Origin: a virus
DNA: 64,000 nucleotides
Virus genome (UHGV): UHGV-0371278
Direction: 5' to 3' (one strand)
Position 1 is the stretch's first letter, and every line of letters starts with the position of its first letter. Shown here in pieces: positions 6,380 through 60,019 of the stretch. The notes under the pieces were generated by a model, which was given only the letters and a program-made list of their open reading frames with translations, was not told the origin of the DNA and did no database searches. The position numbers were made by a program, and so were the translations under genes.

Positions 6380-9300
6380 TGTCTTTCCCTCAACTCCGCG
6401 TTCGCTCCGGCTACTCATACGGCGCCGCATATGGCAGGTTTCCGGAAATCATCGAGCGCGCCAAAGAAATCGAATCACCTTTTGTTGCCATCGTCGATGA
6501 TGGGACCTGGGGTCACGTCCGCTGGGAGCAGGCAGCTACCAAAGCAGAATTGCCTCGCGGATTCGGCATGGAAATCCCGATCAAATGCGCCGATGATGGC
6601 GAAAAAGAGCTGAAGCTGAAGGCCTGGGCGCTAGCCAAAGATACCAGAAAATTCTATCGCCTTACTTCGAAGACTGTCCAGAATCAAGGCTTGTCGCCCA
6701 AAGAATTCCAGGATGCTGACGGCATCATCAAGTTTGCCGGCGAGGCCTATGCCCACTTGGACTTGGCCGGAATCGACTACATTGACATCAATCCTGCGTC
6801 GATGGTCGCCGCGCACGGCGCCATGGAGACGGCCAGGGCGTTCGGCAAGCCTGTGGTGATTACCTCCTACAACGACATGCCGTCCATCGGCCATGTAGAT
6901 TTTGCTTCGGCCTGGAAGGTTCGGGAATCGGTCGGACTTCGCCACATCGCGACTGAGGAAGAGTTGTGGACCCGTCTTCGCCATATCATGACCCGCGAAG
7001 AGTTCGACGAGGCCGTGGCCAATACGCATGCGGTGGTCGAGCAGCTGGTCGATGTAAAACTGGCAAAAGCGCCAATGATCCACCTAGATGGTGATATCGT
7101 CGCCCTGGCTCGCGAGGGCCAAGCCTACCGTCTCAGTCGCGGCCACATCAAGGAATGGACCCAAGCTTACGAAGATCGGTTCCAGGAAGAAATCAAGCAA
7201 ATTCAGCTGAAAGACTTCGACAGCTACTTCCTGGTGGTAGCCGATCTGGTTGCGTTCGCCAAGAAGCACATGCTGGTCGGCCCGGCTCGCGGCTCTTCGG
7301 CCGGCTCTTTGGTCTGCTACCTGCTGGGTATTACCGAGGTTGATCCGCTCCCGCATCGCCTTCTCTTCCAGCGCTTTATCGACATTTCCCGTTCCGATCT
7401 TCCCGATATAGATATCGACTTCGCCGATACCCATCGCTATCTAGTGTTCGAATATCTCCAGCAGAAATACGGCACTTGGAACGTGGTGAAGCTCGGTAAC
7501 ATCAATACGCTGAAGGCCGCGTCGGTTATCGCTCACGTCGGGAAGCGCTTCGGCATTCCATTCCATGATACCGACAACATCAAAAACTCGATCATCGAAT
7601 ATACTTCGGCGGACGAACGATATGGAAAAGGATTGGAGGACACGTTCGAAAAAACTCAACCCGGCCGCGACTTCCGCGAAAAGTATGAGATTGCGTCCGC
7701 CTGCATGGGCGACCTCGAAATTCACCCATCCCACTCTGGCGTCCACGCGGCAGGCATCCTGGTCTGCAACGATGAAGTAATCGATTTCTGTACGGTTACC
7801 TCTGAAGGCGTCGCGCAGCTCGACAAGCCTGATTCGGAATATTTGAATCTTCTCAAGATTGACGCGCTAGGCCTTCGAACTCTGGGCGTGATCCAAGATG
7901 CGAATTGTGTGACGGCGCAAGAGTTGTACGACTTGCCGCTGAACGACAAGGCGGTTTTGGATGTTCTGAACGAAGACAAGATGTCAGGCATCTTCCAGTT
8001 CGAAGGCCAGGCCGTCCGCTCAGTTGCCAATGCTATCAACATCACCGCGTTCGAAAACATCGACCACATTACGGCGCTCGCTCGTCCGGGTCCGTTGTCT
8101 TCGGGAATGGCCACTAAATACATCGAGCGCGTGGCCGGTCGCGAGCCTGTGACCTATACCATCCCGCAGGTCGAGCAGTATCTGTCTGGTACGTATGGCG
8201 TGTTCCTGTACCAAGAACAGATCATGTCAATTGTGAAGGATATTGGCCAGTTCGACTGGGAACAAACGTCGGCGATCCGGAAAGCGATGTCGGCGCGGAA
8301 GGGCGAAGAGTTCTTCAACAAGCGCCGAGAATTGTTCATCGAGGGCGCCAAGACCATAGGCGTCGCCCCGGAAGACGCTCACCGAGTTTGGCAGGAAATG
8401 GTGACATTCGGCGCCTGGGGATTCAACCGCTCCCACTCTGTAAGCTATGCCGTGGTGACGTACTGGACTTGCTACATGAAGCGGTATCATCGCCTGGAAT
8501 ACGCGGCCGCGTGTCTTCGGGCGGCGAAAGACGACCAGCAAACTGTGTCCATACTTCGCGAATTGGCCAAGGAAGGCGTAGAATATACGGCCCTGGACCC
8601 GGAGCATTCCGAACTTAACTGGGTAGTGGCGGATGGACGCTTGATCGGCGGCATCATGAACGCCAAAGGCTTCGGCCCGGCTAAGGCCGAGCGATTCTTG
8701 CGTCTTCGCGAGGAAGTCAAGGCCGCGAGGATCGCCCTGGCCAATTGCCCGATTTCGGCGCAGGATGTAGAGGATAAGGCCGATGACGTTGCCGCGCTGG
8801 AAGCCCAGATTCTTTCGGCGAAAGTAAGCAGAGACAAAGAACTGGAGAAGCTACTCAAAGCTGATCTCAAGGAGTTGAAAGCTGAACTGAAGGAGTTGAA
8901 GGCGCAATATAAAGAGCTGGCCGGCTCCCATCTTAAAACGCTTCAGGATTGGGAGAAAGTTGCCGCGAGTTTGTCAAATTCTGAGGTTCAATTCGCGGAT
9001 TTGAATGAATCTCATACGCTCTGGGGTCATGCCTATGACAATCCTGAGTTGGTTGGGGTGACTTCCGGAAATCCCATTCAGAACATTCGTGATATCCGCG
9101 ATGGCGACGATGGCCTAGTTATCGTCAAGCTGGTAAAGAAAGTTCTGTCGGATGAGAATGAACCGATCCGCCAGAAGAAGAGGGCTGACCAAGGAAAGAA
9201 TCCGGTGTACAAAGGCCAGTCGCAGTTCCTCGATTTGATGTGCGTGGATGACTCGGTTGACCAACCGATTCGTTTCAGGATTCGCCCTGAAAAATATCTT

Positions 9301-27459: not shown

Positions 27460-28053
27460 TCAGAAGTAGCTGGTCACGCGATTATATAGCGATTTTGCGG
27501 CCGAAGATATCGAATCGCCGATGGCGCCCAAATCCAGCAAATTAGCATCAGAAAGAGATTGAATCTGTACCCCATAAGTCGGACTATCTTGAGGGAACGC
27601 AGGATCGAATTTATTCAATACTGGAGGCTCAACCTGCTCGAATTCCATATTGATCTCAGCCGCGTTCAACATGTCTGGAGACTGATCTACATCGAGCGCC
27701 ATGATGGCCATTTTATCGGCCAATATCGACTTAGAAGTGATAGCGAAAGTCGAGGTGTTATCATTGAAGGCGTTCATGATGCTTTCAACGGTGGACAGGT
27801 CCGGACAGATAGCATTGATGCGGAGTCGCACCGGTTGGATGATCTTTCCATTCTTCACATCAATGTCCAGAGCTTCGGTGTACACTTGAGCTTCCGTCTG
27901 GTCTTTCGTCGCCAGAGGTTTCGACACTACGGAAGCCGGCGAGTAAATTTCCACTTTCTTGACTTGAAGACTCTTCCAGACAGGAAGTTTGGTGACATCA
28001 TCGCGTATGGTGAGAGTAGGCGTGTTGAGAATAGACTTGAGGAAAGAGTTCAA
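27460..28053 (-). CDS. hypothetical tail protein
   Basis: position. Confidence 0.4.
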   Translation of the reverse strand: MNSFLKSILNTPTLTIRDDVTKLPVWKSLQVKKVEIYSPASVVSKPLATKDQTEAQVYTEALDIDVKNGKIIQPVRLRINAICPDLSTVESIMNAFNDNTSTFAITSKSILADKMAIMALDVDQSPDMLNAAEINMEFEQVEPPVLNKFDPAFPQDSPTYGVQIQSLSDANLLDLGAIGDSISSAAKSLYNRVTSYF

Positions 28054-32257: not shown

Positions 32258-32839
32258 TTATGTTACTCTGCTGCTAATCGACTGGAGCATGTGAGCCGTA
32301 TCGACCAGCGGTCTGTTGAAACCCTTTCTCCTGACCGTAGATGCTGAGTTAGCAACCCATGGCCCGGTCCTTATGCTTCTGGCTATGTATCCTTCCAACG
32401 CCAGGCCAATCTGGGCAAGAGCTTGATCCGGCGTTATTTGTCCTCTGGCCAGCCTCATGGCTATTCGATTTTGGATCGCGGCGCGATCTGCTGAAAACAA
32501 GTTCCAAGCATATCGCATAAACGGTCGAGCCGGGATTGTGATCCGGTGAGGTTTTGTCACCTCGGTTTCTCCCGGAAAATCGTTTCTGACGAACCGAACG
32601 CCAACAAACCGACCCCGAACAATGGCGTCCCTAATATACCTGGTCCCGCCCGGATGGTCGATAGTTCCGCCGTACTCATTGAGGCGCGCGATTCTCGCGA
32701 CTTGTATTCCGACCGATCCACCCGCCTTATCAGGATATCGAGCGGTGGAATACCATCCGGCCGAAACGGACCTGCCGCGCATGGCTCTTAACATCTGTAG
32801 GTGTGCGGCGATCAGTTCTGAATCGCGTCTCAGGCTCAT
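32258..32839 (-). CDS. virion morphogenesis / tail completion protein (HK97 gp10 / Mu G-like)
   Basis: position between neck genes and sheath; ARPFM motif. Confidence 0.4.
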   Translation of the reverse strand: MSLRRDSELIAAHLQMLRAMRGRSVSAGWYSTARYPDKAGGSVGIQVARIARLNEYGGTIDHPGGTRYIRDAIVRGRFVGVRFVRNDFPGETEVTKPHRITIPARPFMRYAWNLFSADRAAIQNRIAMRLARGQITPDQALAQIGLALEGYIARSIRTGPWVANSASTVRRKGFNRPLVDTAHMLQSISSRVT

Positions 32840-33387
32840 ATGCCTATCAATACCCCATCGGCCGAATATGCTGCGTTTTCGTGCAGACGAATATACTGAT
32901 TGTAAGTGACAACCATGTCAAAACTTGGGTGGAATTCGAATTGATGATTGTCGTTTTCGAATGCCTCGTTGGATATATGAGACACGCGAAGGATAAGGAA
33001 GTCCAGTTCCTTGACTCGCTGAATGGTTGAACGAGCCTGGAAATAAGCTCTCACATAATTGGCGATATCGGCTGCCGTGACTACATGATCCAGATCAGGA
33101 TTTTGCCAATGAAGGGAACTTATCTGAAAAGTCGTCTCGACATGCTGTCGAGTGATTTCTACATATTTTCTGGTTGCGTTGTCCAGATGCCAATCGGTTG
33201 CCGGCCAGCCGCGAGGGATGTCAAACAGCTTCTGGAAGAAGATGGTAGGCTTGGTTGACGTGCCCTGTTGGGTCGGCTGGGCTTTCTGCACAACCTCAAA
33301 ATCAGGAAGCTGCAAAGTTTCTTTGGCAGACGTCATGGCGGCAGTAAGCTCGACCACCAATTTTTCTATCAGTTCGCCGTCAAACAT
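32836..33387 (-). CDS. hypothetical neck/tail protein
   Basis: ATG 33387 with AGGTGG RBS. Confidence 0.4.
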   Translation of the reverse strand: MFDGELIEKLVVELTAAMTSAKETLQLPDFEVVQKAQPTQQGTSTKPTIFFQKLFDIPRGWPATDWHLDNATRKYVEITRQHVETTFQISSLHWQNPDLDHVVTAADIANYVRAYFQARSTIQRVKELDFLILRVSHISNEAFENDNHQFEFHPSFDMVVTYNQYIRLHENAAYSADGVLIGI

Positions 33388-36607: not shown

Positions 36608-38050
36608 TTACTCCCCCTTCAGGTAACTGTCCAGCTCGGCGCACTGCGGAGCAGAACTGGCCGAATCCTGGGCTTTCGATTGACGGCTGGCCGCGCCACG
36701 AGCAGCTTCGACGCCTTTCAGGTACATGTCGAGCGCCAGAACTTCCTGGCCCTTCTCACAGCGGATCGCCAGCTTCTTCACGCCGTAAACAGCGACTTCA
36801 GCCGAGTCCATAGCTCGGTGATCGAACGCACCAACCACGGAACTAAGACGCTTGTAGAGGCGATCTTTAGCAGCAATGTCGCGATAGAGACCGCGAATTG
36901 CTGCATCTTGCGCGTTCTTCTGTGCCATTTCAGGAAGTTCCTCGCTGTTATCCTTGCTCTCACCACCATCGTCGCTGGCTGTTTGCGAGCCGCTGAGGCT
37001 GCTCTGCTCCTCCAAACCCTCGACGACATCTTGGCCTTCGCCATGTTCTTCGTCCGCCTCTTCGGCTACCGTGCCTTCCAGTCGAGCCAGAATGGCTTTG
37101 ACCTGAGAGATCAGTTCGGCGACTTCGCCTTCACCGGACATTTCGGATGCGGCGCTTTCTTGATGCTCCGGCTCGACGGCGGCCACGGCCGGATCGACAA
37201 CGGAAGGCTCCTCTTCCTGCTCTTCGTCGTCCTTCTGGGCACCTTCCAGAGTCGGATGCTCGGTCAGGTGCTCGCTGTCGGTCGGTTCGGCCGGAGCGGC
37301 TGCGCCTTCTTGGTGCTCCGGCTCCTGCGCCTGCGCCTCTTCGCCCAGGAACTTCTGGACAGATGCAGAGAGCTTCGGCCACAGGGCGCGCAACTCTTCG
37401 ACCGCCGAATCAGCAGCTTGTCCTGCGCGCTGGACAGGAGTCTTCTGCTTGGCTTTCTTGAGACCCATTTCATTACCCTCATCGGATGGTCTGAAATCAA
37501 AACTGAGATGGTCAAAGCACAGACCATCCAATACTCTGGCCCCCGGCACACGACCCTCTTTTACCAGGGCGATGTGGTTGCCGCGCATCTTGTCCTGGAC
37601 GACTTCATAAGGCGTTCCATTCCAGATGCCGGGTTGCTCAGTGTAGCGGCAACTATAGCCTAGGGACAGATCTTCCTTGCCCCTTTCCAGCTGATTCTGC
37701 ATGTTGCGGGAATAGATGCGGATATCGCCGCGAGCCCATGGAGCTTCGTAGTAGGCGTTGGCTGTGATGATGCCTTCCACGCCTTTGTCTTCGGGAGCCA
37801 CGCCGTCGTCATCGCCGTCGAATCCCGACAGCATTTCGTGCTCGTCGATCAGCGGGAGATTCTTCAGAGATTCGATGTACTCAGGATCGCTAACGGCAGA
37901 CTCCGGACGATACACGTTGACAATCCGCATCGGATCGCCCGGAAGACCGAGTTGACCGGCAGAATATTGGAAAATGCCATAAGAGCTGATTGGACAACCC
38001 TCGATGGTCATATATCCATTTTCGTCAATTTTTCTTTTCGACTTTGCCAT
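36608..38050 (-). CDS. head scaffolding protein / putative prohead protease (DUF2213-like N-terminal domain, long acidic region)
   Basis: 480 aa, central D/E-rich low-complexity region typical of scaffolds. Confidence 0.5.
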   Translation of the reverse strand: MAKSKRKIDENGYMTIEGCPISSYGIFQYSAGQLGLPGDPMRIVNVYRPESAVSDPEYIESLKNLPLIDEHEMLSGFDGDDDGVAPEDKGVEGIITANAYYEAPWARGDIRIYSRNMQNQLERGKEDLSLGYSCRYTEQPGIWNGTPYEVVQDKMRGNHIALVKEGRVPGARVLDGLCFDHLSFDFRPSDEGNEMGLKKAKQKTPVQRAGQAADSAVEELRALWPKLSASVQKFLGEEAQAQEPEHQEGAAAPAEPTDSEHLTEHPTLEGAQKDDEEQEEEPSVVDPAVAAVEPEHQESAASEMSGEGEVAELISQVKAILARLEGTVAEEADEEHGEGQDVVEGLEEQSSLSGSQTASDDGGESKDNSEELPEMAQKNAQDAAIRGLYRDIAAKDRLYKRLSSVVGAFDHRAMDSAEVAVYGVKKLAIRCEKGQEVLALDMYLKGVEAARGAASRQSKAQDSASSAPQCAELDSYLKGE

Positions 38051-38169
38051 CGTTAATTCGAAGAGTCGTGGACTATGGCTGTATTATATACGCAGGACAT
38101 CCAAGGGTAAATAAGCGGAACAATAATTAGATGTAGCCGCGACTGTTAATTTACACTAGAATCTGTATT

Positions 38170-38570
38170 GTGATCTAATTACCGGATTTCCTCAGCCGCG
38201 AAACTGGTAACTTGGTTTCGGAAATTTGACGGGATTTGTCTAAGCCTACTGCCGCAAGACTTTCAATCTTTAAACTAATCCAAATTACCAATTTACCAAT
38301 TAAAAATTGAATTTCAATACGTATATAGCATATAGATTGACGTTATATTATAACGTTCCTTATAGATGGATTCTATTAGAACGCTACTCCTAATTTCTCA
38401 TGCTATATACTTTTGCAGCATGCGGCGAAATCGGAAATTAGGAATTTAGCATGTTAAAGCCTTGCGGCAGTAGGCTTTCCAAATTACCGCTATTTCCCCA
38501 GAAACGGTAATTTGCGGCTATCCGGACCCGAATTTTTATTCAGAATCCGGATTTTCGCGGCATCATCAGC
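38170..38570. repeat. AT-rich noncoding element flanked by imperfect ~100-bp inverted repeats (core TIR AAGCCTACTGCCGCAAG / CTTGCGGCAGTAGGCTT)
   Basis: no ORF; internal palindrome ACGTTATAttATAACGT; homologous copy at 56390..56700. Confidence 0.55.
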
Positions 38571-38699
38571 CGAAAGCAATCAGGATTGAGACGCCGATGA
38601 TGGCCAGATCAACGGCGGCAAACTTCAAGCTGAAGAATCCGCCATGGATATTGGCCCTTATCACATCGGCCACGAGTCGGCGCGCGTATGTTTTTCGGT

Positions 38700-38906
38700 T
38701 CATTTCACGAGCCTCGACAGAGCGTCCACCAGGGCGCGAAGATCGGCGACGAGCTCAGGCGAACAATCTTTCGCCTTCTTCCCTTTCTCGCTGCGCTGGA
38801 CAGAATAGGCTATGGCGGCTGCCTGTTTCGGGTCTTTCCCTGCTTCAATCTCCCGCTTGATGTTTTCAGAACGGGCTTCATTGGAAGTTCCATGGACTAA
38901 CGGCAT
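38700..38906 (-). CDS. hypothetical small protein
   Basis: 68 aa downstream of MuF-like gene. Confidence 0.4.
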
Positions 38907-38925: not shown

Positions 38926-39765
38926 CTAAATGATTGGGATTTTTCTGCACCGGCAGTTAATCGCCCAACCTGGCGGTCCTTGGTCGGCCTTTGGACCTTC
39001 CCAAAGTCTAGGGTCATTCAGTTTGAATCTTTTCCCGTCCTTTTCCAGGTGGGTATGGCGAGGTGTCTTTCCTGCCGAAGAGTGCATCCATTCAAACTCT
39101 TCGACTCCATTCTCTGCCATTCTCTCATCACTCAACGAGCTGTAAAGTTTACTGGTTTGATCTCTTGCGATGAGTTCGATTCGGTTTTCAGAAAACTTTC
39201 CGACTTCTCTAAGTGCATTTGTTATCCCGGAAGTTCCTTGCTCCTCTGGGTTTGGAGAAGTCAGCGACAACATCACAGATGTGTAAATTTTCTCGTGGAC
39301 TTCCTCTTGAATGTTGGTGATGAGGGTATGGTTGTAAGTAGTCGCGGCTTCCAGGGTGTTCCTGACGCTTTCGTTGTATGAAGCTCGCGGCTGATCGACA
39401 CCAGCCACCGACAGGCTATGCAGAGTCGCAGCGGTCGCGGCTTCGTCGGCCAGATTGACGAACTCCGGGGCGATCTTGGCCGCGAAACCTTCAAAGATGC
39501 GATTCCATCGCTGCTGAAGGCTTCGCAGAGTCATCTTGAACAGGACGTTCACAGATTCGTCTTTCGCGAAGAACCGTTCGGCCGCAGGCTGGGATAAGGC
39601 CTTTTCAATTTCACTTCGATAATCGGCGATCATGAGTTTGGTAATATCCTTCATTTGCTTTCGATACCAGGCTTCGATTCCAGCAGAAGGAATTATGGGC
39701 TTGCCTCTTCCGACTGGAAGAGGCGCCCGGCGTTCGCGTTTCTTGGAGGCTTTGAACGCCATCAC
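38926..39765 (-). CDS. minor head protein, phage Mu F-like (SPP1 gp7 family)
   Basis: C-terminal ...PRHTHLEKDGKRF...PPGWAINCRCR motif. Confidence 0.8.
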   Translation of the reverse strand: MMAFKASKKRERRAPLPVGRGKPIIPSAGIEAWYRKQMKDITKLMIADYRSEIEKALSQPAAERFFAKDESVNVLFKMTLRSLQQRWNRIFEGFAAKIAPEFVNLADEAATAATLHSLSVAGVDQPRASYNESVRNTLEAATTYNHTLITNIQEEVHEKIYTSVMLSLTSPNPEEQGTSGITNALREVGKFSENRIELIARDQTSKLYSSLSDERMAENGVEEFEWMHSSAGKTPRHTHLEKDGKRFKLNDPRLWEGPKADQGPPGWAINCRCRKIPII

Positions 39766-42059
39766 TTACCTCCAAATGGCTTCGTCGTGTCGCCATTTGC
39801 CAGCCAACGACGGAAGGCGGGCAGATCAACTTCATGGATGGAGCCGAGTCCATCCCAGCCCGGACGGAAGCAAGACAGATATCCAGACTTGGCGTCGTTA
39901 ATGTTGTTGAAGCCGAGCATACACTTGTGCTCGTCAAACTGACCTTCCTTGTTCACCTGGTTGACGACGAAGACCCGTTTGGATCCCAGATTCGGACCGA
40001 CGAAGCAATCGACTTCATCCCCATCAGCGCCTTTCGTTCCCTTGATGAACCCGTAGTGGTGCTTCATCTGGACTCGCCAGCTCCCGTCCTTCCCTTGCCG
40101 GATGCTTCCGCGCGGATTTTCGATCAAGGTGGTTATTCCATTCACCTTGATTCTCTGGAGTTCCGAATGATCACGAGGCCCGACGATGCGGTTGGACGAA
40201 AACACTGAAGGCTCCATGCCAGACACGCCAGGTTTGGACGTGCGCTTTAAGCCAGGCGCATCATTGTGCTCTATGTCTACGCCGTCCGGCGCCTTAATGT
40301 CGTCCAGGTCTTGGAGCTTCGACAAAAGATCGACCAACAAGTTCCGCAGCTCGGCCTTGGGGTCCGGCCGCGACGGCGGTTCAGCGGCCTCGCTGGCCCC
40401 TTCCTCGGCCGCTTTCGCGAGGGGCTTAGTCGCGCGTGGAGCGGCGGGAACCGGGCCGCCTGCGCCCTCTACGGCTCCCGCCTGGGCTTCGGCTCGCTCG
40501 GCTTCGCCTTTCGCCTTGACCGACTGTGCACCGGCCTTCTCGAATTCGGCCAGGTTTTCCGGAGACATGCCCGGTTCGGTTTCTGCCTGATCGTCGGTGA
40601 GTCGGTTGTAGCCGGAACGCGGATCGTCGCGCAGACGCTCGCGAACTTCATCCGGAGACACAACGCCAGAGTTGATGTAGATTTCGTCGGTAGCGGCTTT
40701 CTTGTTGTTCAATTCGGCTTGTTGCTGGCTGGACGTGGAGTCTACAGGATTCCAGACGATTTCCAGCTGCACATCGATTTCTTCCGACTTCGCCAGAAGC
40801 AAATAGTGACGTTCGAGAAGTGGGTCGAATATGTGCTCCTGAATGGATTCCAACTCTTCGTGATAAGAAATCGTCTCATGCTCGCCAGTAGCATTGAAAC
40901 CTTTCGGCGAAGTGCCGAGCAACTTCGTGGCTGGAGTCTTGGCGATGGCTGCGACCAGCTGATATTGGTTCATGATGACGCTGTCGAAGTCGGCCAAGTT
41001 CGTATCGAACTGCTCCATGGCTTCATCAATACCCAAAACTTTCACGCCGTGGTTATCGCGATTGGCGATCCAGAACGCCAGGCGGGCGTTGAAGGCATCT
41101 TCATTCGCAATGGCCTTTTCCACATCAACATGAATGGTGCTGGTTCGCTTCGACATCGCCAGCAGCGGCGCTTCGTTCGCGGTCCGCTCGGCCGCATATA
41201 CGCGCTCATAAATGCGCTGGGTAAGCGGGATGCCGCCGAAGAGATATGTTGGCTTCAGGATATCTGGCGGCTGCGGCCCGCGAACGACTACCAGGTGGCT
41301 GCGGTGATATTTCTTCCCGCTGATGATCCAAAAATCGGGCTCATAGAAGTGTTCTGCAGACGGGTCGGCCGTCGAGGCTGCTGTGAGCTGCGGCATCGCC
41401 CAATACGGGTCTATCTGGGAGATTCCCTTGTAAGAGCCGGGGGTGATTCCATCGGGGTTGAATGGCTTCTCATAGTAGTCCGGATCGTCGGACTCAACGA
41501 CGAACAGTGCGATGCGAACGCCGAAGACGTTTTTGAATCGGTTCAACTCGACGATGTTGTCTTTGACGCGAAACTCCATGTCGCGCCGAGCGATCAGCGC
41601 GCTTTGCTCATCGGATAGCTTCCGGCCGTCCGACTTGAGTTCCCATCCGTTCCGTGCTGCGTCTTCGCCTGACATGGAGCAGGCTTTGTCCACCAACCAG
41701 TGCTGAGAAATGATGGCGCAAGCTTGGTGTCCGATGAAGCCTTGGGAGTTGTACCAGTCCTGCAACATGGTCGGAACTACATAGGGATTCTGGCCGCCCG
41801 CAGCAGCCTTCGCGGCCGGAGTCGGTCCGTCACCATACGCGCTGTCCATTGCGACGGATAGGCCCGGTTCCAGAAAATCCTTCACGCTACGGATGACCGG
41901 GGTTTTCTCCGGCTCGACGTTCCAGCCGCGAATCCTTCCCAGCTTGATCATGGGGTCGAGCGGATCGTGTTGAGGGATTTGTGCGACTTTCTCCGGCGCC
42001 GATTCAGAACAGGCAGCATTATCCTTTTTGCGCCCGAATATCCAGGAAAGTTTAAACAT
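39762..42059 (-). CDS. portal protein with C-terminal inorganic pyrophosphatase-like domain
   Basis: first gene of late operon, followed by MuF-like gene; C-terminal HHYGFIKGTKGADGDEVDCFV resembles PPase NYGYI..T...DGDPVDVLV. Confidence 0.65.
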   Translation of the reverse strand: MFKLSWIFGRKKDNAACSESAPEKVAQIPQHDPLDPMIKLGRIRGWNVEPEKTPVIRSVKDFLEPGLSVAMDSAYGDGPTPAAKAAAGGQNPYVVPTMLQDWYNSQGFIGHQACAIISQHWLVDKACSMSGEDAARNGWELKSDGRKLSDEQSALIARRDMEFRVKDNIVELNRFKNVFGVRIALFVVESDDPDYYEKPFNPDGITPGSYKGISQIDPYWAMPQLTAASTADPSAEHFYEPDFWIISGKKYHRSHLVVVRGPQPPDILKPTYLFGGIPLTQRIYERVYAAERTANEAPLLAMSKRTSTIHVDVEKAIANEDAFNARLAFWIANRDNHGVKVLGIDEAMEQFDTNLADFDSVIMNQYQLVAAIAKTPATKLLGTSPKGFNATGEHETISYHEELESIQEHIFDPLLERHYLLLAKSEEIDVQLEIVWNPVDSTSSQQQAELNNKKAATDEIYINSGVVSPDEVRERLRDDPRSGYNRLTDDQAETEPGMSPENLAEFEKAGAQSVKAKGEAERAEAQAGAVEGAGGPVPAAPRATKPLAKAAEEGASEAAEPPSRPDPKAELRNLLVDLLSKLQDLDDIKAPDGVDIEHNDAPGLKRTSKPGVSGMEPSVFSSNRIVGPRDHSELQRIKVNGITTLIENPRGSIRQGKDGSWRVQMKHHYGFIKGTKGADGDEVDCFVGPNLGSKRVFVVNQVNKEGQFDEHKCMLGFNNINDAKSGYLSCFRPGWDGLGSIHEVDLPAFRRWLANGDTTKPFGGK

Positions 42060-42237
42060 TTTAATTCCATGCGGTTGCTGGTTGTGTGCACTTATTATAG
42101 GGGAAACATCAAACGTTCAAAAGAGATTCAAACATATACATCACATTAACAGTCGCAACTAATCAGTTATGAGAAAATAATTCTTACGGGAACTTTTCGG
42201 CAGATTAGACTCTAATTATCAACCAATGGAGATTAAC

Positions 42238-42639
42238 ATGAATCCTCTTCTTCCTATCGTACATATCGTGTTGAAGGACGGCGAAGTTCTGGGCGTGTTC
42301 GATTGCGACAAGTCGGCGCGTCTGTACTGTAACGTGAAAGATGGCGTTTTGGATTCCTGGGTGGTGGAATCGCCGAATAGCTCGCGCTCGCGCCTCGTCA
42401 CGAAAGAGCGCTATGAAGTTGGCGATCACGTCATGTATCGCGACGAGCATGGAGAAGGACACGGCCGCATCCTGGCGGTCGAGCCTCGCGGCGAACGTGC
42501 TCGTGATGAGAAAGAGCTGTACAACCTGTATCAGATCAGCAGCGACGATCCATCTGTGGAAATTTGGATGCTCGACGCAGACATCATCGGCATTTATCCC
42601 GACGAAAAGCGCTTCACTTCTGAAGAGCAGATGGAATAA
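42238..42639 (+). CDS. hypothetical protein
   Basis: GGAGA 8 nt upstream of ATG 42238. Confidence 0.5.
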   Translation: MNPLLPIVHIVLKDGEVLGVFDCDKSARLYCNVKDGVLDSWVVESPNSSRSRLVTKERYEVGDHVMYRDEHGEGHGRILAVEPRGERARDEKELYNLYQISSDDPSVEIWMLDADIIGIYPDEKRFTSEEQME

Positions 42640-53153: not shown

Positions 53154-53375
53154 ATGGCAAAAGTAGTAAGGGTGGACGAACTCAAAACGGGCGACGAGAT
53201 TCTGATCAAGCTCAGTCCCGACAGCGCAGCAAGGAACAGGGCCATCGTCCTGTCGGTCGAACTATGGCGTGGTGAAGTAACTCTGGAGTTGACCTGCCCG
53301 GTCGGCGACTACTGGGAAGACTGGCGCGGGAAATATGTCGAGTACACCAAAGTCGTCCTGATGAAGCGCGACTAA
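53154..53375 (+). CDS. hypothetical protein (paralogue of previous gene)
   Basis: RBS TAGGAGAA; MAKVVRVDELKTGDEIL...RNRAIVL. Confidence 0.5.
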   Translation: MAKVVRVDELKTGDEILIKLSPDSAARNRAIVLSVELWRGEVTLELTCPVGDYWEDWRGKYVEYTKVVLMKRD

Positions 53376-55329: not shown

Positions 55330-55902
55330 CTAAATGGGGTTGGCGCGGTCTTCCTCGGTCGGTTCCGGCGTCGGGGACGGGAAATCGCCCTCTTCGCCGT
55401 TCTGTACATAGCCATTGGCTTCGGCCGCTGCAGCGACGGTCGCGGTTTGAGCCTCGGCTTCCGATGCGTAGAAGTCTGCCAATCCGCGACCGATCCTGGT
55501 TTTGCCAGACTCGTCAACGAACGTGATTTCGGCCAGAACGTTCAATTCCTTGATGGCCGACAGACGGCTGGAGTCCTTGACAGTGGGATCGCGAACCATC
55601 TGGAGAAGTTCGTGAAGCGCCGTCTTTGGGTTCCACAGATCTGCTGTTCTGGTCGCATTCAGCTTGGCCTTGAACTGCTTGCGATAGTACGGGTTGGACT
55701 CCATTGCGAAGATGCGAGCCTGGGCCGGTCCGTCCATATGCTCTTCGCCCCAGATCGCCCGGAAGACCCGCCAGGAGCTATAGCCTTGAACGCGCAGGTC
55801 GATGTACAGATCGAAACGCTTCTGGTTGATCGCCGCGAACTGCGGATCAGCGAATTCTTGTGGCGTGACTAAATCGTCGGGTCTGTAGGATTTGGCGGTC
55901 AT
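55330..55902 (-). CDS. hypothetical protein, candidate terminase small subunit
   Basis: ~190 aa; weak resemblance to TerS HTH region (LRVQGYSSWRVF); long noncoding leader upstream; ATG 55902 chosen over Pro-rich upstream extension. Confidence 0.3.
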   Translation of the reverse strand: MTAKSYRPDDLVTPQEFADPQFAAINQKRFDLYIDLRVQGYSSWRVFRAIWGEEHMDGPAQARIFAMESNPYYRKQFKAKLNATRTADLWNPKTALHELLQMVRDPTVKDSSRLSAIKELNVLAEITFVDESGKTRIGRGLADFYASEAEAQTATVAAAAEANGYVQNGEEGDFPSPTPEPTEEDRANPI

Positions 55903-56389
55903 TTGTTGCTGCGTCCCTGGAGTTCGATTCTTGGACCATCGCGGTGGCTTGTTTGGCGGATGGGGCCTGGTGCTTTGCCGCGACACTGAGTATGGCGCGA
56001 TTGTACTATGGGGCCAGGGAGCACGTCTATGGGCTGCTGGTGGTTGGCCTGTAGGTCTGGGTGGGTTTGATGGTGAATGAGTGTTAGGTGGTGTTATAGG
56101 ATGTTATATGGGCGGTCCGCTGGCGAGTGAGGATCGGATTGGCTGGTGGCGGGCGATGGTGGCGGTGAGTGTTTGGATTGAATGTTAAATCGAATGTTAG
56201 GAATATGTCCAGATGAGCGATTCTGCCTTGTGGCCAAATTTCCGGTTCCGCTCGTCGAGTTTTGGTCACTGCCGCTTAGTCCGCCGTGGTGTTGCCGCTG
56301 CCCATGGTTTGGAAGGACGGAAGTTTCCGGCGACCCTGCCGCGAGTTGAGCGGAATCGGAAACTTGACTGGTAGTGTACAGGCTTAGTG

Positions 56390-56700
56390 CCGCGAGGCTT
56401 TCAAACCTAAAACCATAACAAATTACCAAATTCCCATTAATTTTATTAATTTTAAAGATAGGTAACGTACGTGATAGATTTTTTCTATTAGGATTGTGCA
56501 ATCGATTTTCGCTGTAGAATAGTTTTAAACCATGCTCGGAAAACTGGGAATTCGGGAAAACGGCCGCAAACCCACGCGGCAGTAGGCCTCCCGAATTCCC
56601 AGTCAGAATAGCAATCCAGGAATTTGCGGCTATTTCCCACAAAAAATCCACCTCAAACCCACAATTTCTCAACATTTCACGCAAAATCCAACCATCATAC
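56390..56700. repeat. second copy of AT-rich IR-flanked element (homologous to 38170..38570)
   Basis: shared GCGGCAGTAGGC, AATTTGCGGCTAT, CTTTCAA..CAAATTACCAA blocks. Confidence 0.5.
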
Positions 56701-56873
56701 ACTCCAGACCAATACCGAAAATCTATCAATTCCCCACAATACACCGCCGCCACAACACCCTAATTCCCACATAGCTTTCGAACCTCACCCGTTCACAGGC
56801 TAAATTAATGTTCTCCGCGCCAAAGAAAAGACCGCCCGAAGGCGGCCTAATCCAATCCATCTGCATCAGTACA

Positions 56874-58604
56874 CTAGAAATCCTCGCCCAATATCTTGGC
56901 TCGCTCTGCCTTGACCCTGCGGATATGCGACATTGCGTCATCATCAGAGACAGCGGCGTCATTCTTCCTGACCATATATATCAGCGCATCGTTGAATGAC
57001 GGCAAGGACCCAATCATTTCCTGACCGGCAACTTTATCAGCAGGCAGTAGCCATCCATTCAGGCCGTTCTTATTCGGAATGAATCCAAGCGATTTCAGGT
57101 GTGGAGTTAAATGGCGAGAAATCGGCTTCTTCCTGGCGAGAATATCGAACCACTTCAAGATTTCCACCGTATTGACACGCCACCCAGGAGTCTTGGAATT
57201 CCCACCAGGCTTAATCTCTTCAAACTCGCAACTGATCAGGACATTGATCAGATACATATCAATCGTATCGTCGCGAACCACGCCACGCGCATTCTCCATT
57301 TCCGAAATAGAGAAGTTCTGGACTTCGCGGTTTGCTTCCGACACCATATTCAGGTAGCCATCGACGCCATGCTCTTCGATCCAGGCGCGGCACTCGGCCA
57401 TCGCTTGCCAGAATTTGCGGCCGAAGTCGGTGAAGTCCACTTTGAACGGTTCGTTGCCGTCGCCTGGCTTTACCCAGTTCGGCTTTCCATCCTCATCGGG
57501 CAGTTGCGCCACGAACATTGGATAGAAACGGCGGTTACCAGAGTCGTCCCGCTGGAGTCCATCGTAGCCGTTGCCGTCCATGATGGTGATCCATTGTCGC
57601 TTGATCGTCTCGCCCGGCTCAAACTTCTGGTCGAATGTATCAGAAGATCGCACCAGGAACTCTTTGATGCGTTCCATGTCGCCCTTTTTGAAGCCGGACA
57701 TTTCACCGACGTTCGCAATAACCGAGTTACCGGTGATGTTGCGCAGGAATGGTGTCTGGTCATGCCGGCTCAGGTCGAGCTGGACTGGAGCCAGATCGCG
57801 ACCGCCCGACAGTTCCTTGCATATCAGCAAGCCGAAATAGGATTTACCCGCATCTTGCCCACCAATCAACGCCAGAGAAATCGGCGCCGAAATTCCCGGA
57901 TAATTGATGCGACAGTACAGGCTCAGCCAGAAATACTTGCTCACCATCCGGTTCAATTCGGTGTCGAACGGCTTAAACAGATCGATCAGCAGCGTGCCAA
58001 TTCGCTCTTCGCCGTCCCACTCCGGTATCTTCTTCTCAAACGTCTCGATCAGAGAGTTGCGGCGATATCGACGCGCCCAAACGCAGCAAGTCTCAATCGT
58101 CTTCTTGATCGAGGGATCGTCCAAGGCCGCAGCCGCGAGGGCGCCCATCAGGTCAATCGGGTCGAGGGTCTTGTTGTTGAACGCTACGCCGCGATGGTCC
58201 ACCAGCCGGCCGCGAAACTCATCGAAGTGCGGATGCGGGACGGTTCCATCGCCCTTGCAGAACAAAGTATCGTACACCGCGAGATAGTTGCTGTCGGAAG
58301 TCGAGCTGTATTTCGTGATGAAGTCATCGAACGGCCCTTTCACGACCCGGCTGACCGGAAGATCGAACGCCTGGTCGAGCATCAACAACCGCGCTCGCTT
58401 CCTCAAGTCTGGTTCCGCATACGCCTCGGCGTATCTTGCCGCCTTTTGTGCGCGATGCGTTTCGTTCCTCGCAATCGCATCATCGGCCGCCTTGCTCGCG
58501 GCGGTCATCAAAGGGTCCATTCCAGCATCTTCTATCTGTGTGAGATCAAACTCACTGGACCCTGATTCGCCATCATCAAAAATATTATCTTCGTCGATAA
58601 TCAT
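56874..58604 (-). CDS. VirE-like / P4-alpha C-terminal-type NTPase (primase-associated helicase)
   Basis: Walker A LIGGQDAGKSYF; 576 aa. Confidence 0.6.
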   Translation of the reverse strand: MIIDEDNIFDDGESGSSEFDLTQIEDAGMDPLMTAASKAADDAIARNETHRAQKAARYAEAYAEPDLRKRARLLMLDQAFDLPVSRVVKGPFDDFITKYSSTSDSNYLAVYDTLFCKGDGTVPHPHFDEFRGRLVDHRGVAFNNKTLDPIDLMGALAAAALDDPSIKKTIETCCVWARRYRRNSLIETFEKKIPEWDGEERIGTLLIDLFKPFDTELNRMVSKYFWLSLYCRINYPGISAPISLALIGGQDAGKSYFGLLICKELSGGRDLAPVQLDLSRHDQTPFLRNITGNSVIANVGEMSGFKKGDMERIKEFLVRSSDTFDQKFEPGETIKRQWITIMDGNGYDGLQRDDSGNRRFYPMFVAQLPDEDGKPNWVKPGDGNEPFKVDFTDFGRKFWQAMAECRAWIEEHGVDGYLNMVSEANREVQNFSISEMENARGVVRDDTIDMYLINVLISCEFEEIKPGGNSKTPGWRVNTVEILKWFDILARKKPISRHLTPHLKSLGFIPNKNGLNGWLLPADKVAGQEMIGSLPSFNDALIYMVRKNDAAVSDDDAMSHIRRVKAERAKILGEDF

Positions 58605-58942: not shown

Positions 58943-60019
58943 CTACTCCTCGCCGATATGACGGCGGTTGATGCGTTCAAGTTGTTCGACAATATACGGC
59001 AGGACGACTTCATCGGTGAAGGCCGCCCATGTCCGTCGATGCTCTTTGCGGCAAGTATCGTGCCCGCATCCGAACACATATTCGTGCTCGGCGCCAGGTA
59101 TCGGTCCGCGAAAGTATGCGCCGAAAGGATCGCCATTTGTGTGCTCGTCGCCCCAGGGACAGCGGATGCGGTATTTGCCGGACATATTCTGCTGGACCTG
59201 GCCGCCTGCCGCTTCTCCCATCTTGTATTTCGTGCAGATGTGCTCGGCATACTTCAACCATACTTGGTCATACAACCAATCGTCGCGGTTTATCTCCACC
59301 TTCTTCATCTGTGGCATGATGATGCGGACGCCAAAGGCCTGGGCGATTTCCTCTGGTGAGTAGCGCTTGGAATAGTCTGCGTGATACAGGCGAACCAGTT
59401 CGGGCTTGCCGTTTTCGTCTGCATATTTGAAGTTGCCGTCTTTCCCGCGCTTGTTGTTGAAGCCGAAAGGCATGCGACCATAACGGCTGACGTCTTTGAC
59501 GGTGTTGTCGCCGCCTTTCTTTAGCACCTGGTCCACGAACGAATAGAGCAGCGCCTTGAACTGGAGCATGTGGGCCATCGGCTCTTTGAAGAAATACCAG
59601 AACTGGTAGTTGTTCGGCGAAGTCTCCACAATCGCGGTCGGCTCCAGGCGTTCGCGGAACTCGTCGCGGTCGAAGTCGCCTTTGGAACCTTTGCCGGAGC
59701 CGATGTCATCGACCATTAACGCCAGGCCGTGGCCGAAAGAGGCCTCGCCGCGCCAGTATCGCATCTGGCCGGTCTTCGGGTTGGGCGTCTTGATGGATGA
59801 CGAGATACAGGCATATGCGTTGGATCTGGAATTGATGTACTTGCCTTCCTTCCAGGGAACTGGCCACCAGCCTGCGTTGAGCTTGCGGCCGTTTTCGTCG
59901 GTCTGGACTGTGGCCTCTTCAGCGTAGCCGACCATCACCCGTTCGTCGTCCGGAATCCCTCTGCCGAGTTCTCGCAGGAATTCTTCGGCCTGAGCCAGTC
60001 TTATTTCGTGAGGCTTCAT
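58943..60019 (-). CDS. DNA primase-polymerase (AEP family prim-pol) with C-terminal zinc-binding motif
   Basis: GHGLALMVDDIGSGKGS catalytic Asp motif; CPWGDEH...GCGHDTC; ATG 60019 after GGAG. Confidence 0.55.
   Translation of the reverse strand: MKPHEIRLAQAEEFLRELGRGIPDDERVMVGYAEEATVQTDENGRKLNAGWWPVPWKEGKYINSRSNAYACISSSIKTPNPKTGQMRYWRGEASFGHGLALMVDDIGSGKGSKGDFDRDEFRERLEPTAIVETSPNNYQFWYFFKEPMAHMLQFKALLYSFVDQVLKKGGDNTVKDVSRYGRMPFGFNNKRGKDGNFKYADENGKPELVRLYHADYSKRYSPEEIAQAFGVRIIMPQMKKVEINRDDWLYDQVWLKYAEHICTKYKMGEAAGGQVQQNMSGKYRIRCPWGDEHTNGDPFGAYFRGPIPGAEHEYVFGCGHDTCRKEHRRTWAAFTDEVVLPYIVEQLERINRRHIGEE

Follow-up and report, generated by a model that had tools for sequence, protein, structure and literature searches.

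The analysed stretch of DNA, UHGV virus genome UHGV-0371278 (64,000 nt in full; hereafter the window), is a nearly complete genome of a Pbunavirus, i.e., a PB1-like Pseudomonas aeruginosa myophage, and is 94-97% identical to the phages PSA09, PSA25, and EPa61 over 36-42 kb. It carries an AT-rich inverted-repeat element in two copies, one within the head gene module (copy 1) and one upstream of terS, the gene for the small terminase TerS (copy 2). Copy 2 is the packaging-initiation (pac) region, and copy 1 is a diverged duplicate of it. On balance, copy 1 is probably the head-module member of a two-member family of packaging-recognition modules, and one that normally remains uncut; as four genera retain the pair, two matching recognition sites are probably required by the phage.

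The two copies align over 38218-38521 and 56356-56633 (61% over 307 columns, E 6e-16), and self-alignment revealed no third copy within the window. An earlier note, made from the sequence alone, had described the head-module element and a diverged second copy, which this significant alignment bears out. The note is partly supported: its observation is correct, whereas none of the three functions that it proposed (a late promoter, an origin-like element, or an insertion resembling a miniature inverted-repeat transposable element, MITE) fits well. It also overlooked the identity of the second copy, namely the pac region that precedes the small-terminase gene.

The packaging start and copy 2

Copy 2 sits in an 887-bp gap, after a primase/helicase gene with its terminator and before terS. 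The features of this region are as follows:

56874-58604, minus strand: gene for a VapE-like primase/helicase (Pfam PF05272), upstream of copy 2
56829-56848: terminator of the VapE-like gene
About 56260-56640 (aligned part 56356-56633): copy 2, with arms at 56380-56402 and 56568-56589 and an AT-rich core between them
56503/56504, minus strand: pac cut, where the packaging series starts; on the gene strand, it falls between ...GAAAAT and CGATTGC...
55330-55902, minus strand: terS, encoding the small terminase of 190 aa, directly downstream from copy 2

The identity of TerS is well founded. The window protein belongs to PHROG 4783 together with gp001 of the Escherichia coli phage WFC (Wifcevirus) and gp001 of the Serratia phage MTx (Myosmarvirus), and a profile of these three orthologues matches PDB 7UXE, 'Small terminase' (E 1e-80). 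This entry is taken to be the structure of E217 TerS, going by a review that describes E217 TerS as decameric. In addition, the annotation of E. coli phage Mansfield names the orthologue TerS.

Several independent data sets place the cut at one nucleotide. In virion DNA of phage JG024, 36 of 161 long reads begin at reference position 59,376, a hotspot that was proposed as pac and is matched by a pac fragment in a restriction digest (Ipoutcha et al., PMC10913387). Genome alignment, with which BLAST agrees exactly, equates this position with 56,504 of the window, within the AT-rich copy-2 core. The GenBank records of Pa193, BrSP1, SIIA-P1, and vB3530, which come from different laboratories, likewise start at window position 56,504 or at most 2 nt away, the chance of a record starting within a given 5-nt interval being ~8e-5. 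For phage SCUT-S1, an earlier paper gives a PhageTerm pac site 'in an AT-rich region'. Because copy 2 adjoins terS, and because the JG024 hotspot and the four record starts map there, copy 2 is identified as the packaging-initiation region, and its place right before terS is the usual one in pac phages.

Where pac lies in Pbunavirus, and which protein is TerS, had thus already been reported, and the published proposals (JG024 59,376; SCUT-S1) concern the same locus as copy 2. Apparently new are the repeat architecture of pac, its head-module paralogue, and the conservation of the pair across four genera, with DNA ends in copy 2; in the accessible parts of the JG024 and SCUT-S1 pac papers, no mention was found of the repeat architecture, the paralogue, or equivalent pairs in other genera. 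A review suggests that E217, whose TerS structure has been solved, may have no pac site. With copy 2, the E217-type TerS gains a candidate target of ~300 bp with defined motifs. Knowledge of pac also matters for therapeutic phages, with respect to both transduction risk and genome engineering.

The pac of phage SPP1 (pacL-pacC-pacR) resembles copy 2 in that recognition repeats lie on either side of the cut and the site is found by terS. In P1 pac, hexamer arrays flank the cut, and this site is likewise found by terS. Both phages have a single pac site, unlike the pair described here, and to our knowledge no second pac copy is known in the head genes of either.

The flanks of copy 2 (56000-56400 and 56640-56800) are skewed in composition. 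In gene orientation, the sequence is G/T-rich upstream, with a GC skew of up to +0.6 to +0.7, and C/A-rich downstream, with a skew down to -0.6. This pattern is kept in Pbunavirus and MTx (NC_048759 68,254-68,480 and 100-500) and partly in WFC (68,090-68,390); in the Burkholderia phage Maja (Bcepfunavirus), it is similar by eye, and copy 1, with its coding flanks, is without such skew. E. coli-type Chi octamers, GCTGGTGG, lie just inside the packaged pac end at 56036-56043 and 56142-56149 (plus strand), so that 2 of the 11 in the window fall within 470 nt of that end. In MTx, 4 of 6 fall within 1.3 kb of the left end, at record positions 179, 930, 997, and 1276. The octamers are oriented for recognition by RecBCD entering at the pac end; their consensus is that of E. 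coli and may not be that of P. aeruginosa.

Symmetric architecture of copy 1

Copy 1 differs from copy 2 in the strength of its symmetry and is made up of the following parts:

About 38131-38565: element copy 1, in the head module
38242-38263: left long arm, AAGCCTACTGCCGCAAGACTTT, promoter-proximal in gene orientation
38264-38455 (192 nt): AT-rich core with internal dyad symmetry
38340-38356: inner palindrome, ACGTTATAttATAACGT (ACGTTATA-tt-ATAACGT), with TATAAT on the minus strand
38456-38477: right long arm, AAAGCCTTGCGGCAGTAGGCTT, a repeat_region in the record of phage goonie
38480-38514: flanking hairpin-type inverted repeat, CAAATTACCG-N15-CGGTAATTTG
38135-38140, 38194-38199, and 38250-38255, minus strand: three GCGGCW motifs, outward from the core
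38464-38469, 38514-38519, and 38557-38562, plus strand: three GCGGCW motifs, outward from the core

The arms of 22 nt are 95% complementary and 192 nt apart, and 17 nt of them pair perfectly (AAGCCTACTGCCGCAAG / CTTGCGGCAGTAGGCTT). Beyond the arms, the symmetry continues over 38215-38505, which can be aligned to its reverse complement (61% over 316 columns, E 9e-8), with a score well above that of dinucleotide shuffles (z = 7.5). GC content falls to 0.355 over 38001-38400, compared with ~0.55 for the genome, and to 34% in the core. The arms, the self-complementary alignment, and the dip in GC confirm the AT-rich inverted-repeat element that the earlier note had seen in the head module. Its further details hold as well: imperfect arms of ~100 bp are a fair description of the self-complementary stretch, the ~200-bp core is the 192 nt between the arms, and the inner palindrome with its minus-strand TATAAT is present. 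Other windows of low GC (0.43-0.48) occur at 42001-42400, 32801-33200, 8801-9200, 27601-28000, and 1-400, and are without similarity to the element.

The cores of the two copies have the blocks TAATAGAA, ATCTAT, ACGTTA, and TTGGTAATTTG in common, and the motif GGTAATTTG of the flanking hairpin reappears in the copy-1 core at 38281-38299. Within Pbunavirus, the cores are conserved as sequence, beyond mere composition, and the inverted repeats are conserved as pairings. Double changes among the lineages preserve the complementarity of both the long arms and the CAAATTACC/GGTAATTTG hairpin; for example, sequence comparison reveals a compensatory change from A-T to G-C in the left arm between the window/EPa61 and the 14-1/goonie/E215 lineages. 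The pairing of the flanking hairpin is likewise preserved through compensatory changes in copy 2 of other lineages.

The six GCGGCW motifs, three per side and all pointing outward, widen the symmetric region of copy 1 to 38135-38562. Their density in the copy-1 gap is 11.7/kb compared with 1.9/kb for the genome, i.e., a six-fold enrichment, and of all 500-bp windows in the genome, those of copies 1 and 2 rank highest for this motif. Considering both gaps together, the motif points outward in 12/12 instances in the window, 8/8 in WFC, and 5/5 in MTx; with the broader pattern GCGGC[A/G/T], copy 2 of Maja gives 8/8. As the motif was chosen post hoc from the same data, these statistics are indicative only. 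The E. coli-type Chi sequence was considered as a source of GCGGCW and rejected, since the sequences differ.

Palindromes of this kind raise the question of whether the element is a structured RNA (a long 5' leader or a noncoding RNA) or a MITE-like mobile insertion, and we hold both to be highly improbable. Copy 1 folds very stably, with z = -8.3 as DNA (plus strand) and z = -8.6 as RNA (minus strand), i.e., about -8.5. However, both strands fold equally well, as those of any palindrome do, and no transcription start site (TSS) or termination site delimits a transcript. The sole noncoding RNA candidate of phage 14-1 appears elsewhere (probably the short TU043 transcript, 53163-53335), and scans of the whole window with Rfam (gathering thresholds) and for tRNAs found nothing. 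A structured noncoding RNA was therefore rejected. The likeness to the terminal inverted repeats of a MITE, which the earlier note had raised, is superficial. A search of 185,579 bacterial and archaeal species genomes found no element with both arms; the 17-mer of the left arm gave 97 single matches in bacterial genomes, none of them with a second arm, and our own estimate for chance is ~70. Target-site duplication is absent, the flanks being GTCT and TCCA. Since there are two copies per genome, both at fixed syntenic sites, and no both-arm element in the genome collection, the MITE was rejected as well.

Conservation of the pair and the probable role of copy 1

The element is found in related phages, where the earlier note had proposed to look for it. 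The gap that holds copy 1 is retained at 88-100% identity in ~295 Pbunavirus records, and the pair recurs in phages of three other genera. These relatives, with head proteases that are 41-48% identical, keep a 350-460-bp gap between the MuF/small-ORF (open reading frame) block and the protease gene. In WFC, the head gap consists of tandem CGGATGATA iterons, an AT-rich core of ~100 bp, and inverted iterons. Its copy 2 lies at 68,621-68,819 (E about 1e-14 to 1e-16 against the head-gap copy), and the 3,784-bp direct terminal repeat of WFC starts at 68,689, inside the copy-2 core and upstream of terS. In MTx, the head-gap element has arms of 19 nt with ~220 nt between them, and copy 2 matches copy 1 at 69% over 260 nt (E 4e-30). 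MTx copy 2 straddles the left genome end predicted by PhageTerm, where the direct terminal repeat starts; this end is 368 nt past the stop codon of the primase gene, the matching distance in JG024 being 369 nt. In Maja, the head gap and the gap upstream of terS both carry ATAGTTAAC iterons, and copies 1 and 2 match at 72% over 221 nt (E 2.5e-30).

These alignments show that four genera keep the pair: Pbunavirus, Wifcevirus, Myosmarvirus, and Bcepfunavirus. A packaged DNA end lies in copy 2 of the window phage, and also of WFC and MTx, and copy 1 is homologous to the mapped pac, as are the copies 1 of the three other genera. In the Xanthomonas phage FoX7 (Carpasinavirus), no similarity was detected between the head gap and the terS-upstream gap, which is short and GC-rich; this was treated as absence or divergence of a recognisable pair and not as refutation. 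A scan of IMG/VR with GCGGCAGTAGGCYTYCC returned mostly chance matches together with a few Pbunavirus contigs, and a protein-based IMG/VR scan for TerS returned no genera beyond those already compared.

When the Pbunavirus, WFC, and MTx elements were all compared with one another, the two copies within a genome match each other (E 2e-17, 8e-15, and 1e-31, respectively), whereas all 12 of the 12 between-genus pairs give E >= 0.02. The two copies thus evolve in concert within a lineage, while orthologous copies have diverged beyond recognition between genera. Such concerted evolution implies either a shared, lineage-specific trans-acting factor or exchange of sequence by gene conversion.

If exchange were the whole explanation, copy 1 might be functionless: a part of the pac region would have been duplicated and then homogenised by gene conversion, and hairpin-templated repair would maintain the palindrome. 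The arms of a palindrome can indeed homogenise without selection, and a function is documented for copy 2 only. Nevertheless, the pair is found at two fixed syntenic sites throughout four genera in which the proteins encoded alongside share only 40-48% identity, copy 1 is retained in all ~295 Pbunavirus genomes, and a non-coding gap of 500 bp is unusual where intergenic space is reported to make up ~7% of the genome. A copy 1 devoid of function is accordingly very unlikely.

The main rival to the packaging reading is that both copies are replication origins, with the packaging cut happening in or next to one of them; we regard this as unlikely. Two-site replication has precedents in oriL/oriR of SPP1 and in ori/crr of P4, which are bound by the alpha primase-helicase. 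As in these systems, there are two dispersed, related non-coding sites, one of them by a primase/helicase gene; unlike in these systems, the conserved neighbour is terS and not the primase gene, and a DNA end maps inside one copy. The origin-like element of the earlier note fits in so far as the core is of low GC content (34% in a 55% GC genome), with repeated motifs, dyad symmetry, and flanking repeats, although such features are generic and do not discriminate. In Pbunavirus, MTx, and Maja, copy 2 also comes after the VapE-like primase/helicase gene, and the SCUT-S1 authors speculated about an origin function of the AT-rich pac region. Gene linkage and skew disfavour the idea. Copy 2 of WFC stays directly upstream of terS although the primase is 9 kb away, and copy 1 has no replication gene as a neighbour. 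Neither copy coincides with the skew switch of an origin: the cumulative GC-skew minima of the window fall near 7.4 kb and 62.2 kb, with both copies near maxima, and the paper on phage Banzai reports two minima with a spacing of ~10 kb, the copies being separated by 18 kb. Furthermore, the core is conserved in sequence and not in composition alone. The window minima (~7,400 and ~62,200) are ~11 kb apart on the circular map, a spacing that matches that of the two minima reported as putative origin regions of Banzai.

Returning to the packaging reading, each module consists of a sequence-conserved AT-rich core, inverted arms, outward GCGGCW arrays, and a genus-specific iteron (here GGTAATTTG). 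One sequence-specific packaging factor would bind both copies, the decameric TerS ring being the most likely candidate, possibly with the assistance of a host DNA-bending protein. The asymmetric copy 2 would be cut by terminase, and the strongly palindromic copy 1 would normally be left uncut, serving as a partner or checkpoint site through two-site synapsis, as proposed for T4 gp16. Alternatively, copy 1 might respond to TerS and control the protease-scaffold-capsid operon, the promoter of which lies 130 bp downstream. We infer one of these two roles for copy 1, i.e., synapsis with pac or control of the head operon; a role in transcription control is compatible with the packaging reading, and the two are not separable here.

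Copy 1 is apparently not cut, or not often. Among 292 records that match a 221-nt probe over its core, 290 span it intact. The sole break is in the record of vB_PaeM_E215 (NC_042080), which starts and ends at window position 38,378/38,379. This could be a rare cut in copy 1 or an assembly break, for which a strong AT-rich palindrome is a likely point. The E215 break lies 14 nt from the position aligned to the copy-2 cut.

The rarity of such breaks is one of several points that weigh against a packaging role for copy 1. In contrast to copy 2, copy 1 does not adjoin terS, from which it is 18 kb away, and no packaged DNA end maps to it. Because it is not a detected terminus, paralogy with copy 2 is the single line of evidence that suggests its link to a packaging-recognition factor. 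The main weakness is that E217 TerS, according to the review, showed no appreciable DNA binding in vitro. Simple binding by TerS also does not account for palindromy being strong in copy 1 (z of 7.5, 10.7, and 3.3 in three genera) and weak in copy 2 (-0.3, 3.8, and 0.6). Gene conversion could bring about concerted evolution even if no factor were shared, the AT-rich core and its flanking repeats also fit an origin, and the outward rule for GCGGC[A/G/T] is broken in copy 1 of Maja, where only 2/3 motifs conform.

A precedent for a two-site arrangement is the T4 twin ring pac synapsis of Black and co-workers, in which TerS rings join two dispersed homologous sequences prior to packaging; the review describes this model and notes that E217 TerS may form higher-order oligomers. 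In T4 as in the window, one sequence lies by the terminase gene and the other in the structural-gene region. The pac-like sites in T4 genes 16 and 19 are 24 bp long, lie inside coding sequence, and are ~3 kb apart. In contrast, the modules described here are non-coding, ~300 bp long, and 16-20 kb apart, with a mapped packaging start in one and a strong palindrome in the other. The T4 model also involves a twin TerS ring, which for the present TerS is hypothetical. It is a tentative and rather doubtful proposal that, in PB1-like myophages of at least four genera, TerS rings bridge a cleavable pac module upstream of terS and its uncut palindromic paralogue upstream of the head protease operon. 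If true, such bridging would act as a checkpoint on the state of the concatemer or would couple head-gene expression to the start of packaging, and the two-site system would be a conserved, naturally occurring equivalent of the 'pac synapsis' model long debated for T4. The conserved second site makes the two-site idea directly testable, as a cryo-EM structure of TerS and a yeast-based platform for genome rebooting exist.

Transcription and gene neighbourhood

The setting of copy 1 within the head module is as follows, all flanking genes being on the minus strand:

39762-42059, minus strand: portal gene
38926-39765, minus strand: gene for a MuF-like head morphogenesis protein
38700-38906, minus strand: gene for a 68-aa virion protein
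38566-38703, minus strand: 45-aa ORF of the conserved phage family phrog_5611 (E 5e-30)
38051-38565 (515 bp), minus strand: non-coding gap with copy 1, from the ORF list and the annotation of relatives
38076-38111, minus strand: sigma70 promoter of the head protease operon (-35 TTTACC, 38111-38106; -10 TATAAT, 38088-38083)
36608-38050, minus strand: head maturation protease gene (with scaffold function), from the annotation of relatives, followed by the major capsid gene

Transcription within the gap has been mapped in phage 14-1 by ONT (Oxford Nanopore Technologies)-cappable-seq, which yielded a single start, that of the sigma70-type promoter P014 (TSS 13,257) (Putzeys et al., bioRxiv supplement). 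A consensus scan together with the match to the 14-1 upstream sequence places the equivalent TSS at about 38076 of the window, with a leader of 26 nt before the ATG of the protease gene. The -35/-10 pair is also present in WFC, MTx, and FoX7. This promoter is ~130 bp outside the inverted repeat of copy 1, and in the 14-1 data no TSS or termination site falls in the arms or the core, including at the TATAAT of the palindrome. The late promoter that the earlier note had suggested as one possibility for the element is therefore not borne out. Sigma70 promoters were also predicted at the inner palindrome in JG024 (Table 3) and in the annotation of LMA2; because the 14-1 map has no TSS there, these predictions are unsupported. 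At copy 2, the 14-1 promoter P040 has its TSS (59,399) in the core, shortly ahead of the downstream arm, and P041 lies before terS.

These data bear on a further reading, namely that the element is a transcription-control module at which a regulator of the phage or the host acts on the sigma70 promoters downstream (P014; P040/P041). The order of element, sigma70 promoter, and late gene on the same strand is found for both copies in all four genera, P040 starts inside the copy-2 core, and older annotations predicted promoters in both cores. Nevertheless, neither the arms nor the core of copy 1 contain a mapped TSS, the window phage has not kept the -10 region of P040, the element far exceeds the typical size of an activator site, and the start of packaged DNA inside copy 2 would be left unexplained. 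As the primary function of the element, transcription control is thus improbable.

Some smaller features accompany the promoters. The terS promoter of the window, TAGACG-18-TACAAT (56029-56000, minus strand), equals P041 of 14-1, and its -10 context, TACAATCGCGC, is present upstream of Maja terS too. A GCGCGGCTA-like motif (here GTCGCGGCTACATC) lies at 38120-38146 (minus strand), about 20-30 nt upstream of the -35 box of the protease promoter and ~85-95 nt upstream of the protease start codon, as it does in WFC (GGCGCGGCTATATC) and MTx (GGCGCGGCCATAGT). It may be a conserved site for a head-operon regulator or the outermost GCGGCW repeat of the element. The loop of the flanking hairpin carries, in both copies, the minus-strand CTGGG core of a 'phage-specific promoter'; this core was rejected as too frequent (174 sites), and no 14-1 TSS maps to it in these loops.

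With regard to neighbouring genes, the ORF-free span of ~640 bp given in the earlier note is in fact 515 bp, the 45-aa ORF having been counted as non-coding. The gap is thus flanked by this ORF (38566-38703) and by the gene at 36608-38050; the latter, which the note had called a scaffold gene, is annotated as a head maturation protease with scaffold function. A small gene equivalent to the 45-aa ORF is found at the same position in WFC (gp025), MTx (gp030), and Maja (gp008).
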